A program made the position numbers and the translations under genes. The notes below the pieces were generated by a model. That model was given only the letters and a program-made list of their open reading frames with translations. It did no database searches and had not been told where the DNA came from. Shown in pieces: positions 994 through 6,238 of a stretch of 32,000 nucleotides of DNA. Every line of letters begins with the position of its first letter. The stretch's first letter is position 1. Source of the DNA: Candidatus Thorarchaeota archaeon (GTDB lineage: Archaea > Asgardarchaeota > Heimdallarchaeia > Hodarchaeales > Hodarchaeaceae); assembly GCA_048882505.1 (NCBI GenBank), contig JBHLRO010000009.1, positions 60,001-92,000 on the forward strand. The letters are read 5' to 3'.

Positions 994-2439
994 TTGAACC
1001 TATCAGACTGGTGGATAAATCAGATAAAAAACACCTTTAGTATGGGGCACCTACCCGCGATTCAAGATTATTTACGAACCCCATCAATCTCAGCTACTGG
1101 TGAGGGGATCCGTGAGACTGCTGAAAAAACAGCACAAGCGATACAGCAGCTCGGAGCAGAGGATGTGCAAATCGTACCTACGGAGGGATGGCCCATTGTT
1201 TATGGAGAATTAATTTCAGATCATGAAAAACCAACTGTAATCTTCTACAGCATGTATGATGTTCAGCCCGTAGAGGCTGAAAAATGGCAAGTGCCTCCTT
1301 TTGGCGGAAATATTGTAGAGGATTTCGAGGGAATGGGACGCGCCCTTGTGAGTCGAGGGGTTATAAATACAAAAGGCCCAACAATGGCATTTTTCCAAAC
1401 TTTGAAAACAGTGGTGGATGCGGGCAAGGAACTGCCAGTAAATATTATCTTTGCAATTGAAGGGGAGGAGGAATTGGCCTCTGTTCACTTTCCGTCTTTC
1501 GTTCACGATTTTAAAGAGCAACTCGCGAAAGCTGATTTGGTTTATTTTCCCATTTTTAGCGAAACCATGGACGGGAGGATATTAATTTCACTGGGGGTTC
1601 GTGGAATTATCTATTTTAAAATCTGGGTTCAAGGGGGACCTTGGGGTGGACCTCAGTCTCGTAACATTCATTCATCTTTAAGTAGTTGGGTGGACTCCCC
1701 AACATGGAAACTGATTCATCTGATTTCAAAAATGCGGGCGCCTGATGGGAAGATACTAGTCCCAGGCATATATGATAATGTAAGGCCAGTATCAGAGGAA
1801 GACCGCAAAATGATCAAGGAAAGTGCGCCAAAACTCGATATTAACATCGTAAAAAAGTCTATTGACGTACATACCCTACTCACATCTGAAGCAACGGATA
1901 AGGAACTCTCAGCAGAGGAGTTAGCACTGAGATTTCTCGCACCGTGCTTAACAGTTGACGGAATCATTTCAGGAAATTCTGAAGAAAAAGGGACTAAAAC
2001 TGTTCTTCCGTACAAAGCATTTGCTAATATGGATATCCGACTGGTTCCTGACATGGAAGTGAATGATATTAGGAATAAAATCACTAGGTTTATCCGAGAA
2101 ACCTGTCCTGAAGCTCAAATCGATATGGAAGCTGGATATATGTGGGCAAAGATGTCCCCCTCCCACCCATATGTAAAGGGCCAATTGGATTTATTACGAG
2201 AAACAGGAAAGCCATTAATCGTTTCTCCGATTGCTGGCGGCTCGGCCCCGTTTTATATCTTTCAAGAGAAATTTGATCTTCCGATACTCTGGGGAGGATT
2301 GGGACATGGCACTCGAGCCCATTCACCCAATGAATATGCATTTCTAGAAAGTAAGACGGGAGCAGGGGGCATTATGGAATTTGAGATGTCAGTAGCACGC
2401 TTACTATCCAAAATCGGAGAAATCGGGAAATTGAGGTAG
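994..2439 (+). CDS. M20/M25/M40 family metallopeptidase/amidohydrolase (dipeptidase-like subfamily, variant metal ligands)
   Basis: YSMYDVQP, RGVINTKGP, EGEEE, SLGVRG, HSS, DIRLVP and HSPNE motifs. TTG start. Confidence 0.88.
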   Translation: MNLSDWWINQIKNTFSMGHLPAIQDYLRTPSISATGEGIRETAEKTAQAIQQLGAEDVQIVPTEGWPIVYGELISDHEKPTVIFYSMYDVQPVEAEKWQVPPFGGNIVEDFEGMGRALVSRGVINTKGPTMAFFQTLKTVVDAGKELPVNIIFAIEGEEELASVHFPSFVHDFKEQLAKADLVYFPIFSETMDGRILISLGVRGIIYFKIWVQGGPWGGPQSRNIHSSLSSWVDSPTWKLIHLISKMRAPDGKILVPGIYDNVRPVSEEDRKMIKESAPKLDINIVKKSIDVHTLLTSEATDKELSAEELALRFLAPCLTVDGIISGNSEEKGTKTVLPYKAFANMDIRLVPDMEVNDIRNKITRFIRETCPEAQIDMEAGYMWAKMSPSHPYVKGQLDLLRETGKPLIVSPIAGGSAPFYIFQEKFDLPILWGGLGHGTRAHSPNEYAFLESKTGAGGIMEFEMSVARLLSKIGEIGKLR

Positions 2440-2623
2440 GTTCAATCGCTTAGCTTCCAGCTCAGCATCATGAATGGAAACAGTTGATCTGATTAAGTAT
2501 TTTAAACCGCGTTTGATGTAGGGAAGCTAAACTCTCTGTATATTTAAAGAATTGGAAAAGGGGTCTTGGATCGCAGTATGGAACCTCTAAAGACCTCTTT
2601 TCAAATATTGCTAAGGTGATTTT

Positions 2624-3358
2624 GTGGTTGTCCGGGAGTTTTTGATCGTTCACGAGTATGGAACAGTGATCTACCACCAACGCTATTCAAAGTCATCACA
2701 GGATATTGTGCTACGTTCTGGGTTGATTAGTGCCCTTTATAACTTTGCCCAAGAGGTCGAACGGGACTCGATTGACGTTCTGCGAATGGAAAAAGTCTCC
2801 CTACTGTTTAAAAAAAGAGATCTCTTGATTTTCGTATTGTTCTTCGATTCGACGGTGAATCCGGAATGGTGTAAAAGGGAAATCGATATACTTGCCAACA
2901 ATTTTTACCTAGCGTTCCCTGATGTCCTTTGGAGTACTGAAATCGTAAATCTAACAAGATTTAAGTCCTTTGACATGGATTCCGATCGAATTCTCACAGC
3001 ATTAAACAGAAAGCTGGAATTAATCCTTTATTTGATCGAAGAAGGGATTATCACAGAAGAGGAGTATCAGGAATCGAATTTCCAAACTCTGGGGCAAATT
3101 GTGGGTAAACGTCTTTTGGATAGATTCCATAACCAGTTTTCTTATGTACTGGGACAAGGAAGCGAATTCACGTTTTCCCAGATCGATCTTCTTCTTGATC
3201 TCCTTAATGCGACACATATACAACGGCACGGATCAAAATATACGTTCGATTGCGCCCACTGCTTCCTGTGTGAAGACAAACAGGACTGTTTTTTCAGTGG
3301 CGTAATGACTCAAATACGAGCAATCCTTAATCTTGACCTAGAAACATTGTTTTTGTAG
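2624..3358 (+). CDS. N-terminal longin-like domain fused to a C-terminal V4R/Bet3(TRAPP)-like domain
   Basis: N-terminal pattern FLIVHEYGTVIY...LRSGLISALYNFAQEV...IDVLRM is typical of Asgard longin-like domains. The C-terminal part has FQTLGQIVGKRLLDRF and CAHCFLC-x5-CFFSG, resembling V4R. GTG start. Confidence 0.65.
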   Translation: MVVREFLIVHEYGTVIYHQRYSKSSQDIVLRSGLISALYNFAQEVERDSIDVLRMEKVSLLFKKRDLLIFVLFFDSTVNPEWCKREIDILANNFYLAFPDVLWSTEIVNLTRFKSFDMDSDRILTALNRKLELILYLIEEGIITEEEYQESNFQTLGQIVGKRLLDRFHNQFSYVLGQGSEFTFSQIDLLLDLLNATHIQRHGSKYTFDCAHCFLCEDKQDCFFSGVMTQIRAILNLDLETLFL

Positions 3359-3554
3359 CAGAAACTCCATTGGATTATGCACACAAATAATGAAAGACCA
3401 TATCGCGTTTGTTATTGCAACATGTTTTTAAAGGTTGGTAGATCAACCTAATCAATTTAAACATTGATCTGGCTCATGATGGTAACTAGGAAGATTAATC
3501 CACGAATCATCTGTCTAGATCAGTGTTTAGTCTCTATACAAGCAAAGATAAGAT

Positions 3555-3818
3555 GTGAGAGAATTGAGCGACCAACCCCCAAGCGATGATGAGTTATCAG
3601 CCGGCAAGGTGGGCTTAACTCATGTTGAAACTAAAACTGGAACTTCTACACGAAGATTAGTACTTTCTTGTGTTCAATGTGGAACAACGCAAGACTTTCC
3701 TATATGCCCCGAATGTGGGGAGCCGATGGATCTTGAAAACGGGAATTTCACCCATCATGGTAACGAGGTTCCCATTTCTGAACACCACGGACAACCTATG
3801 AAACCAAAAATCGTGTAA
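3555..3818 (+). CDS. Small Cys/His-rich putative metal-binding (Zn-ribbon-like) protein
   Basis: CVQC, CPECGEPM, THHG and EHHGQPM motifs within 87 aa. The GTG start is uncertain. Confidence 0.7.
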   Translation: MRELSDQPPSDDELSAGKVGLTHVETKTGTSTRRLVLSCVQCGTTQDFPICPECGEPMDLENGNFTHHGNEVPISEHHGQPMKPKIV

Positions 3819-3945
3819 TTTTGGCTCATTTGTAGCAAGAGTGAAATAACGTCTATCCTATCAACACTTTTTTTCCCCTCGGGAAAAATTCCCTCCATGT
3901 TCCTTATTTTTCCCCTTAACAGTATATGGTACTTTGAAACTTTAA

Positions 3946-4515
3946 ATGGTAAGGATTATGAGAAGTCATAACTATGAAGGCCCGCGCTATAAGATTATCG
4001 TTGTTGGGGACGGTGGAGTGGGAAAAACAGCCATTCTTGAGCGCTTACTTGGCAGGGCGTTTCATAGTACCTACAAACTGACGATTGGAGCCAATATTCT
4101 TACAAAACAGCTTATCTTTGATGGAACTACTTTCAAACTTCAGATTTGGGATCTTGCTGGACAGACTAGATTCACGATCGTGCGATCTACCTATTATTCT
4201 GGAGCTCATGCAGCGATACTCTGCTTTGACAAGAATTGGCCTCCTTCATTCGAAAGCTTGCCAACATGGAAGAACGAAGTGGAATCGCATCTAGGGAGAA
4301 AGATTCCTCTTCTTCTAATTGGAAACAAAAATGATCTTCCTTCTCAAATTACTCAAGATAAGATTGACGAGTACATAACGTCAGTTAATGCAAATCATCC
4401 GTGTACGATGCCATATCTCTCAACCTCTGCAAAAACTGGAAGCAACATGAGCCAAGTCCTCAAAACACTCGCTCAGCTTCTCACTAGCTACAAAACGGAT
4501 GTAGGCTCAAGATAA
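3946..4515 (+). CDS. Rab-like small GTPase
   Basis: G1 GDGGVGKT, G2 YKLTIG, G3 WDLAGQ, Rab-like RF...YYSGA, G4 NKND, G5 SAK. No C-terminal prenylation Cys. Confidence 0.95.
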   Translation: MVRIMRSHNYEGPRYKIIVVGDGGVGKTAILERLLGRAFHSTYKLTIGANILTKQLIFDGTTFKLQIWDLAGQTRFTIVRSTYYSGAHAAILCFDKNWPPSFESLPTWKNEVESHLGRKIPLLLIGNKNDLPSQITQDKIDEYITSVNANHPCTMPYLSTSAKTGSNMSQVLKTLAQLLTSYKTDVGSR

Positions 4516-4558
4516 CTTTAGTTTACCTTTGGTGAATGTAAACCTTTTTGAACGGCTA

Positions 4559-4575
4559 TTTTGTTGTTTTTTTTT
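4559..4575 (+). terminator. Possible archaeal oligo-T terminator after the Rab-like gene
   Basis: TTTTGTTGTTTTTTTTT (T9 at 4567-4575), about 45 nt after the stop codon. Confidence 0.35.
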
Positions 4576-4604
4576 GCAGTTAAGGATGCAGCTGTGGTTC
4601 AGAT

Positions 4605-5099
4605 ATGGGTAAGCTCGATAAGCTAAAAGATCGTATTCTAGCGGAATTTCCAGGCAAGATGGAGAAGGAAAATGTTCTCATTATGAGCTTCATTATGAAG
4701 GAAGTTGAACATGGAAAACAACCTCCAATAAAGGGGGATATAGAAAGCGCAATCAAAGAACTAATTTCTGACGGAATCTTTGAAAAGAAAGATGGACTGT
4801 TAATCCTAAGAAAAGAAGCTTTACAAGCGGAACAGGACGAGCTTGCACAGAAAGAGTCCAAAGAAGAATTTACGGTTTTTAATCCAATGAGCTACCCCCC
4901 AGATCAAGCACAAGTCCTCCTGGCTTTTGGCCAGGCGAAATACGAGAATCGGTCGGCTCTCATTATGGGAATCACGATGAAAGAACTCCAAAATGGAAAC
5001 AAACCTCCAAAAAGGGTTGAAATCGAGCAATCGATCAAAGCTTTGGTTAAGAGCGGGGCATTAGAATCCAAGGGGGAGATGCTAATTAGAAAAATCTAG
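4605..5099 (+). CDS. Hypothetical protein made of two ~60-aa repeats, each winged-helix-like
   Basis: Internal duplication LIM..MKE...G..PP....IE..IK.L...G..E.K...L separated by an acidic linker. The wHTH fold is inferred. Confidence 0.7.
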   Translation: MGKLDKLKDRILAEFPGKMEKENVLIMSFIMKEVEHGKQPPIKGDIESAIKELISDGIFEKKDGLLILRKEALQAEQDELAQKESKEEFTVFNPMSYPPDQAQVLLAFGQAKYENRSALIMGITMKELQNGNKPPKRVEIEQSIKALVKSGALESKGEMLIRKI

Positions 5100-5107
5100 T
5101 ACCTGAT

Positions 5108-6238
5108 TCATTCTGGCAAAATGAGAGGGGATGGACTCATCCTCGGATCCCTTCGGAGGAGAGCAATCCGGAACCCTAGAAAACTGGACTGACTATAACC
5201 AATGGGAGAGGGAATAGTAGAAGGAAGTTTTCGGAGCGTGGCGGCCAAAATTTCGGCACCAACGAGACGAGCACCGTATGCATCAGCGTATATTTCGTCC
5301 AAAAACCGTTTGTAACTCATATAAAAGGATAAACACCCCGATGCTGAGAAGCTGAATAGAGAAATCGATGCAAGTACTAGAAGAGATAGAGGGTCGTGTA
5401 AAAGAGTTTCATTGCGTATAGCGGCCATCGTATAAAGATTAACTCCATATATCACACAATAATAGCGAAACGTACGCAAAACGGTATCAAGAGAACCAAA
5501 AACGTAGTTTTTTCGTATGTGATGGTTCGCTAGATGCCCTTCCTCGTGACTCAATACAGCGATTAGTTCTTCGTCATCAAGTTTCCATTGGAAATAGCGG
5601 GACACCAAACAAATTCGTTTACGCCCCAGACTGGTCACCCCCGCAGAAAGGAAAAGCGATGCGGGCTGTATATCAGCAAATCGAAAATCGCTGAACAAAT
5701 GACTCTTCGGATGCTTCTGGACAATATGATCGATTATTTCAGGTTTAAGAGGTTCTCTAGCAGTTCGGAGGAGTTCTCCTTTGGATCGCATCGCGCGGAA
5801 GACAAGTAAACCTTGAATGATAAACGAAAAAAGAAGTCCAATTCCAAAATATACCCACAGTGGTGTCGATTCGTGAAGTAAAGGGTTTAAGACAAGACTG
5901 TATCCAACTCCAATGATGATCACCGAGTAAACCTGTTGGATTAAATACAGGAAAATATCCTGGATCGTAGGTTGGAAATGAAAATATGATGCGGATAGAG
6001 CAGCCTTTTTTAAGGTTCTAAAAGCCTGAAGATAAAACGTTAGCATAGATAAGAAAAGCAGCCCAGAAAAGACAATCAATGTCAGCAAAAATGTAGGTTC
6101 AGGGAGAAAAATACCGAATAGTTCGACTCCACCTACTATAAGAAGGGCGGGGAAAAAGAGATAAGTGATTATATGCACCCAGTCACTTAACGGTAAAAAT
6201 ATCCCATCATTTTCACGCGATAGTCTAGTTTGATCCAC
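5108..6238 (-). CDS. Membrane M48-family Zn metalloprotease (HtpX/Ste24-like)
   Basis: Several N-terminal TM segments, HEEGH (HExxH) and a downstream EIYADAYGA third-ligand motif. GTG start. Confidence 0.85.
   Translation of the reverse strand: MDQTRLSRENDGIFLPLSDWVHIITYLFFPALLIVGGVELFGIFLPEPTFLLTLIVFSGLLFLSMLTFYLQAFRTLKKAALSASYFHFQPTIQDIFLYLIQQVYSVIIIGVGYSLVLNPLLHESTPLWVYFGIGLLFSFIIQGLLVFRAMRSKGELLRTAREPLKPEIIDHIVQKHPKSHLFSDFRFADIQPASLFLSAGVTSLGRKRICLVSRYFQWKLDDEELIAVLSHEEGHLANHHIRKNYVFGSLDTVLRTFRYYCVIYGVNLYTMAAIRNETLLHDPLSLLVLASISLFSFSASGCLSFYMSYKRFLDEIYADAYGARLVGAEILAATLRKLPSTIPSPIGYSQSSFLGFRIALLRRDPRMSPSPLILPE

Follow-up and report, generated by a model that had tools for sequence, protein, structure and literature searches.

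A longin domain joined to a probable shortened V4R/TRAPPC3-like domain in a protein family of the Hodarchaeales

The stretch of 32,000 nucleotides analyzed here (the window) lies on contig C9 of G000, the genome of a Heimdall-group Asgard archaeon. On its forward strand, an open reading frame (ORF) at positions 2624-3358 encodes a protein of 244 amino acids (aa), in the following called the fusion protein, in which a longin domain is followed by a domain that we read as a shortened relative of the V4R and TRAPPC3 (Bet3) proteins. The gene and its parts are:

2624-3358, + strand: coding sequence of the longin plus V4R/TRAPPC3-like fusion protein, 244 aa, GTG start and TAG stop (ORF list)
2624-2998, + strand: longin domain, aa 1-125 (predicted fold and Foldseek)
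2996-3355, + strand: C-terminal alpha/beta domain, aa 125-244, 120 aa, read as truncated V4R/TRAPPC3-like (AlphaFold2 model, structure matches and hhalign)
3080-3127, + strand: helix motif FQTLGQIVGKRLLDRF, aa 153-168, aligning to the G..iG helix of the V4R and Thorarchaeota TRAPPC3-like profiles
3251-3289, + strand: cysteine cluster C210-x2-C213-x2-C216-x5-C222, then FFSG; probable structural Zn site (conservation and alignment)

A Shine-Dalgarno-like AAGGTGA site stands just 5' of the GTG start, and the start position is shared by the homologues. Because 23 homologues were found at E <= 4e-51, aligned over their full length, we regard the ORF as a real gene; the closest of them carry the labels Heimdallarchaeota, Hodarchaeota or Hodarchaeales. 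Among the data sets listed as containing positions 2400-5200 there was no RNA data set; those listed were DNA metagenome contigs. A first-pass annotation of this DNA had proposed a fusion of a longin and a V4R/Bet3-like domain near a Rab gene, and the two motifs it quoted were recovered at the same positions, FQTLGQIVGKRLLDRF at 3080-3127 and CxxCxxC-x5-CFFSG at 3251-3289, where 3251 is the first nucleotide of the cysteine cluster and 3289 the last of the C222 codon. The AlphaFold2 (AF2) model of the full protein, built from an alignment of 24 sequences, reached a predicted local distance difference test (pLDDT) value of 87 and a predicted template modelling (pTM) score of 0.82, and we hold with moderate confidence that the gene encodes a soluble two-domain protein.

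The model of aa 1-125 shows an antiparallel sheet of five strands, flanked by a single helix on one side and by two helices on the opposite side, and follows the longin element order beta2-alpha-beta3-alpha-alpha. With Foldseek, this domain matched 55 PDB chains at E <= 1e-3, and the 50 that were listed are longin, roadblock, adaptor small-chain or SRX-type chains. These matches and the predicted fold bear out the longin-like N-terminus of the first-pass annotation, and the assignment as a longin domain is firm. Fuz_longin_1 was the sole Pfam family found on the domain, with an E-value of 3.8e-5 and 24.3 bits, under the cut-off of 26.1, and two close homologues carry PF19036 in a precomputed table; Sybindin, Sedlin and TRAPP gave no Pfam match in the fusion protein. 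Longins of SNAREs and adaptors fit the domain as well as, or better than, those of TRAPP, and no eukaryotic longin subfamily is favoured. The nearest longin domain outside the family occurs in proteins of about 440 aa from Heimdall-class genomes (loci L025-L038; hhalign 98.9%, with a shared SGLISALY-type helix). Their C-terminal half is unrelated to that of the fusion family and hydrophobic by eye, and they may be membrane-anchored longin proteins.

Modelled alone with AF2, aa 125-244 reached a pLDDT of 93.7. The layout comprises five helices, a beta-hairpin, a cysteine loop that includes a short strand, a C222-capped helix and a last strand; the C-terminal 120 residues are a compact alpha/beta domain with four conserved cysteines. 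A family alignment of 20 sequences, with identities down to 23%, shows no variation at C210, C222 and F223 and retains C213 and C216 in at least 90% of its members. In a search with this model against known structures, chains of Bet3/TRAPP, V4R, H-NOX, BcsD or guanylate cyclase made up 14 of the top 50 matches; these are the families also named as structural relatives of the Thorarchaeota TRAPPC3 crystals (Tran et al. 2024, PMC10933270). Structural Z scores within the top 50 were 5.2, 4.9 and 4.7 for chains of TRAPP entries (7b6d_F, 2cfh_A and 3cue_B), 5.0, 4.5 and 4.1 for the V4R sensor domains of DmpR, PoxR and MJ1460, 4.9, 4.5 and 4.0 for H-NOX chains and 4.7, 4.2 and 4.1 for BcsD chains, with soluble guanylate cyclase and another H-NOX ranked lower. 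By our own estimate, the V4R/Bet3/H-NOX superfamily is enriched more than 100-fold in this list, among whose top 50 no Thorarchaeota TRAPPC3 entry was listed. A shape search of the ESM Atlas with the full model returned a 265-aa Asgard cluster annotated as V4R (TM score 0.51, 164 residues aligned). The best language-model look-alike of residues 125-244 (0.76, a 61-aa Sybindin/Sedlin cluster) stayed below the level of a lead and was not used.

Searches at the level of single sequences and families returned little for this domain. The full protein gave no V4R, TRAPP or HNOB match in Pfam at E <= 1, and at E <= 10 no Pfam family was common to the 23 members save short-motif noise, to which we also assign weak SHOCT, YHS, JHD and LIM matches. 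No PDB sequence relatives of the domain were found, and the hidden Markov models (HMMs) of the family returned nothing below E 0.08 from the ORFs of 31 V4R loci (hmmsearch). One protein with ten matched stretches (P0035, 796 aa) was discarded as a spurious match, as it is an exact tandem-repeat protein without cysteines.

The family's C-terminal profile was also aligned, using hhalign, with alignments built from the genome searches. Against 19 Thorarchaeota TRAPPC3-like proteins (Pfam TRAPP), the score was 31.8 (P 1.6e-4, Prob 50%, 113 columns), compared to 11.6 +- 2.1 with a maximum of 17.8 for 100 column shuffles, a maximum of 22.0 for 60 block shuffles and 15.3 for the reversed control. The score against 16 Asgard V4R domains was 24.4 (P 3.3e-3, Prob 9.8%, 103 columns), reached by 0 of 150 shuffles, and that against the C-terminal halves of Asgard longin-V4R proteins (see below) was 22.8 (P 6e-3, Prob 6%, 80 columns), reached by 0 of 80 block shuffles. 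Unrelated profiles (longin, GTPase) scored 11.9-17.9, and V4R against TRAPP as a positive control 78.1 (Prob 97.5%, 120 columns). All three alignments agree on the V4R elements, and on their order, to which the LG..VG.RLL helix and the cysteine loop correspond; LG..VG.RLL falls on the G..iG helix of the V4R/TRAPPC3-like profiles. By eye, the family's T-F-x-C-x2-C-F-x-C resembles T-F-K-V-Y-E-C-F-E-C of V4R, and C222-FFSG-V-M resembles the C-x-(x)-F-[ST]-G-[IF]-[LI] that opens the next V4R helix. Since the structural enrichment, the three hhalign results (P 1.6e-4 to 6e-3) and the collinearity with longin-V4R proteins agree, each of them being weak, the C-terminal domain probably belongs to the V4R/TRAPPC3 (Bet3) superfamily as a divergent and shortened member, in keeping with the V4R/Bet3-like domain claimed at first pass.

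In the predicted model, C210, C213, C216 and C222 lie between the hairpin and helix 223-235. By eye, C213, C216 and C222-FFSG match the C-x2-C ... C-x-FF-[ST]-G pattern of V4R, TRAPPC3-like and longin-V4R proteins. The terminal hairpin of V4R with its last cysteine pair (E..C.A.GD..C.F in V4R) is missing from the family, and the fusion protein ends about 20 residues past the Cys-capped helix with one strand and no cysteine. With these two hairpin cysteines gone and an extra one, C210, gained upstream, the ligand count would again be four. Thorarchaeota TRAPPC3 binds Zn through four cysteines, and among TRAPPC3 relatives the Zn ligands change position yet continue to link the sheet to the helix (PMC10933270). 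We consider it probable that C210, in place of the usual C-terminal cysteine, completes a predicted structural Cys4-Zn site. A structural site is likelier than a gate because the Cys4-Zn site of Thorarchaeota TRAPPC3 ties sheet to helix; the metal gating suggested at first pass is not indicated, the Cys4-Zn site being structural in the solved relatives (PMC10933270).

Next, we compared the family with related fusions and known systems. Two further Asgard families, one of which shares the class of G000, contain six ORFs of 291-325 aa (L160-L165) that combine a longin domain with a Pfam V4R domain. The fusion-family HMM recognizes the longin domains of these ORFs at E 5e-11 to 7e-7, and an end-to-end alignment with the six proteins over 240 columns was obtained for the full-length family profile (hhalign Prob 96.3%, E 1.7e-9), the longin half contributing most of the score. 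Both groups have the same domain order and the C-x2-C ... C-x-FF-[ST]-G-[FV] pattern. However, the six proteins are about 50 residues longer, match Pfam V4R at about 1e-13 and have retained the terminal hairpin together with its pair of cysteines, whereas the fusion family lacks the hairpin and has C210. The fusion architecture extends beyond the one published example, and the present family is probably the Hodarchaeales branch of wider Asgard longin-V4R/TRAPPC3 fusions.

That example is the Heimdall sequence MBD3190748.1, which joins a longin to a TRAPPC3 domain and for which an AF2 homodimer was shown (Tran, Akil, Senju, Robinson 2024, Commun Biol 7:273, Fig. 9g, Suppl. Fig. 10g; PMC10933270). 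Compared by description only, it agrees with the fusion family in having a longin followed by a TRAPPC3/V4R-type domain in a Heimdall-group archaeon. The published account is limited to a single sequence and offers no family, distribution, synteny or cysteine pattern; the domain in our family is truncated and invisible to Pfam. The longin-TRAPPC3 fusion as such is already published, and the present family is a divergent addition to it. The Thorarchaeota TRAPPC3-like homodimers known from crystals (PMC10933270) are the best profile match of the C-terminal domain, at the Prob of 50% and P of 1.6e-4 given above. Like them, the fusion family has a Cys4 site linking sheet to helix, in its case predicted from sequence, but they are stand-alone proteins of about 160 aa and the family is longin-fused. 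In the eukaryotic TRAPP core (Bet3-Trs23-Bet5-Bet3 with Trs31/Trs33/Trs20), the guanine nucleotide exchange factor (GEF) for Rab1/Ypt1, the two folds are separate subunits, whereas the fusion family has both in one chain. The earlier claim that both TRAPP building blocks sit in one polypeptide is supported as to architecture, firmly for the longin and more weakly for the V4R/TRAPPC3-like half. A further difference from TRAPP is that the linkage of the fusion gene to a Rab-like GTPase gene is not conserved. None of the roadblock/longin GTPase platforms (MglB, Ragulator, Mon1-Ccz1) has a V4R/TRAPPC3-like domain in the same chain.

The C-terminal domain is present in 17/24 Hodarchaeales genomes with one to three copies each, and 59 other genomes of the class gave no convincing match. 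Outside Hodarchaeales, matches across 301 genomes of the phylum were confined to the longin half, and when proteins of 64-244 aa were searched with the C-terminal profile, full-length family members alone were found, with no stand-alone or otherwise fused form. The fusion family was found only in the order Hodarchaeales, where one annotated member comes from "Candidatus Hodarchaeum mangrovi". G000 has copies on contigs C9, C7 and C62; the paralogues C7:24089-24982 (L008) and C62:2748-3401 (L007) show 26-27% identity and contain both the longin and the Cys-cluster halves, and heterodimers among the three are possible. Pfam TRAPP proteins occur in 26/26 genomes of one other Asgard family and in 0/6 sampled relatives of G000, and G000 itself gave no Pfam TRAPP match. 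Its only Pfam V4R matches lie in one 542-aa frame with two V4R domains (G000:C22:34375-35226, L004), and frames of 556-561 aa with V4R matches were seen in three sampled genomes of the same genus.

Taken as a whole, our reading is that of a two-domain protein of longin and V4R/TRAPPC3-like type with a role as a platform, and we hold it at even confidence. The fusion protein would dimerise, as longin/roadblock platforms and TRAPPC3 dimers do, and the dimer would give one or more of the approximately 40 small GTPases of G000 a platform for docking or regulation. In this arrangement it would amount to a one-gene miniature of the Bet3-longin-longin-Bet3 core of TRAPP. The platform role itself, which is drawn by analogy, is tentative and stands somewhat below an even chance. 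In G000, four of 17 longin-like ORFs (on C9, C13, C6 and C5) lie within 1.2 kb of one of the 40 small-GTPase genes, compared to 0.59 of 17 expected from random placement (P ~0.002, with the 1.2-kb threshold picked after seeing the data), and a general link between longins and GTPases in this genome is plausible.

A number of results weigh against this reading. The separate Foldseek check of the two domains succeeded for the N-terminal one, which is a longin, but found no PDB match for aa 125-244. Each single structural Z score (4.1-5.2) is under the noise guide of the tool, and the ESM Atlas shape search with the C-terminal model alone gave no V4R row, only TM scores of 0.31-0.44 to unrelated families. 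The domain, which lacks the terminal hairpin, falls about 30-40 residues short of the length of V4R/TRAPPC3; V4R (PF02830), TRAPP (PF04051) and HNOB of Pfam have no match at E <= 10 in the 23 family members. The hhalign Prob values of 6-50% are under the usual 90% and not decisive. Dimerisation, Zn binding and GTPase contact are predictions from sequence and analogy, and gene linkage names no target GTPase for the fusion protein.

The genes downstream of the fusion gene bear on the other readings:

3555-3818, + strand: 87-aa zinc-ribbon ORF between the fusion gene and the GTPase gene (weak Pfam DZR/Zn_ribbon; kept by the GTPase in G280 and L003)
3946-4515, + strand: Rab-like small GTPase, 189 aa, without a C-terminal cysteine (Pfam Ras 5.6e-40)
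4605-5099, + strand: 164-aa internally duplicated (winged-helix-like) protein, the conserved partner gene of the GTPase (synteny, nine genomes)
5108-6238, - strand: M48 (HtpX/Ste24-type) membrane metalloprotease, convergent (Pfam Peptidase_M48 9.7e-11)

The gene order in the window is fusion, zinc ribbon, GTPase, 164-aa gene, M48 and a kinase-like gene. The M48 gene is the most often kept neighbour of the fusion gene, being adjacent or near at 7/21 loci, and in four genomes the fusion gene abuts it directly, the three-gene cassette between them being gone. At locus L003 (10343-12753), an M48 (Ste24/HtpX-type) protease gene is followed by genes for an ICMT/PEMT-family methyltransferase and another Ras/Arf-like GTPase. 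By analogy, this set recalls the eukaryotic CAAX-processing set; the GTPase of the window has no C-terminal cysteine.

Hydrophobic ligands are known for V4R and Bet3 domains, namely phenol in PoxR and palmitate in Bet3. The fusion protein could accordingly be a small-molecule- or lipid-binding adaptor unrelated to GTPases, with the longin serving only for dimerisation or docking, perhaps at the membrane near the M48 protease, and to this we give a minor though appreciable chance. V4R/TRAPPC3 domains have ligand cavities, and a ligand-binding role was concluded for the Asgard proteins (Tran et al., PMC10933270); however, the truncated 120-aa domain may have lost the cavity. The frequent presence of the membrane protease beside the fusion gene would fit, but this linkage does not extend beyond one genus and may reflect no more than inherited gene order. 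The nearest outside longin relatives, the proteins of about 440 aa, have a hydrophobic and by eye possibly membrane-spanning C-terminal half, and the longins of SNAREs, adaptor complexes and SRX, equally good structural matches here, act without Rab regulation. The enrichment of longin genes beside GTPase genes in G000 speaks for a connection to GTPases instead.

It is unlikely that the C-terminal domain represents a Zn or Fe-S fold specific to the order and unrelated to V4R/TRAPPC3, so that the shared features, a helical bundle with a small sheet and a CxxC knuckle, would have arisen by convergence. The lack of Pfam, PDB-sequence and Foldseek matches would be expected of such a fold, as would its occurrence only in fusion to this longin in 17/24 Hodarchaeales genomes and, convincingly, in none of 59 others of the class, and CxxCxxC...C is also a ferredoxin-like spacing. 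Convergence would nevertheless have to account for a structure list enriched, by our estimate, more than 100-fold for one superfamily, for three profile-profile alignments that beat all shuffles with the same elements in the same order, and for the longin-first architecture with a true V4R in other Asgard lineages.

The first-pass annotation had further suggested that the fusion protein regulates the neighbouring Rab-like GTPase, so that it would be a dedicated regulator (a GEF, perhaps ligand- or metal-gated) of that protein. The neighbour itself was confirmed: the GTPase gene starts 588 bp (about 590 bp in the earlier account) after the stop of the fusion gene on the same strand, and by our own arithmetic chance would place one of the 40 GTPase genes within 588 bp with a probability of about 0.016. 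Its best PDB sequence matches are Rab1A/B (E 7.5e-32) and then Rab7, Rab1 being the TRAPP substrate, and the general proximity of longin and GTPase genes in G000 would also fit. The same order is found in G280, a 93% identical relative, and, with two inserted genes, at L003 (53% identity), so that adjacency extends to three genomes (G000, G280 and that of L003). However, gaps of 196 and 127 bp surround the intervening conserved 87-aa ORF, which the first-pass annotation had left unmentioned, and the linkage was not found to be conserved. At approximately 11 other fusion loci, four of which have the fusion gene directly against M48, the neighbourhood is free of small-GTPase genes for 20 kb or as far as the contig reaches, and in two genomes a GTPase stands beside a homologue of the kinase-like gene, 5-9 kb from the fusion gene. 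Where fusion and GTPase genes both occur, they are usually far apart, e.g. 160 kb in G208. Instead, the orthologous GTPase is always followed directly by the 164-aa gene, in nine genomes (G000, G280, G208, G256, G062, G238, G136, G133 and that of L003). Across the 24 Hodarchaeales genomes, the fusion gene and the 164-aa marker are uncorrelated (both in seven, fusion only in ten, marker only in five, neither in two), and G256, a single contig of 96% completeness, has the GTPase pair and lacks the fusion gene. A dedicated regulator of this GTPase is therefore improbable.

The pair of GTPase and 164-aa gene (3946-5099; L088, L091, L093, L096, L003) occurs in at least nine Hodarchaeales genomes. 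Because it is kept independently of the fusion gene, the 164-aa protein would, judged by gene order, be a better candidate partner or effector of the GTPase at 3946-4515 than the fusion protein. From the same synteny, the adjacency in the window appears as a remnant confined to one lineage, with the fusion protein not a dedicated partner. A predicted complex of the two proteins scored 0.00 against a mark of 0.32, a score that counts on neither side of the binding question. The genome of MK-D1 as a rule does not place its small-GTPase genes in one operon with genes for roadblock, longin or TRAPPC3 proteins (PMC10933270), an arrangement that agrees with the unconserved linkage in Hodarchaeales.

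An identity as a DtxR/MntR-like metal-dependent regulator, raised by the resemblance of LG..VG.RLL.R.H to a DtxR-family helix and by a match of the close-homologue profile to B. subtilis MntR (E 0.009, residues 134-205), is effectively refuted, as the E-value fell to 0.86 with a more diverse family profile, no DtxR/MntR chain is in the top 50 structure matches, and the N-terminus is a longin in place of a helix-turn-helix domain.

The present analysis adds to the published example a family with one to three copies per genome across Hodarchaeales, in which the V4R/TRAPPC3-like half is shortened and the predicted Zn site rebuilt. Because of this shortening and rebuilding, standard annotation misses that half. 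Gene order names no GTPase partner, and identifying one is a matter for experiment.

The Hodarchaeales belong to those archaea that are placed nearest to eukaryotes, in which TRAPP, built from longin and Bet3 folds, is a universal Rab activator. A homodimer of the fusion protein could, by analogy, mirror the pseudo-symmetric Bet3-Trs23/Bet5-Bet3 core and act as a GEF for Rab-like GTPases of Hodarchaeales. We think this rather unlikely, but if true it would provide a "Rosetta stone" for the origin of the multi-subunit TRAPP GEF before eukaryotes. The two-domain protein offers a simple test of whether the longin-Bet3 pairing served GTPases before eukaryotes.

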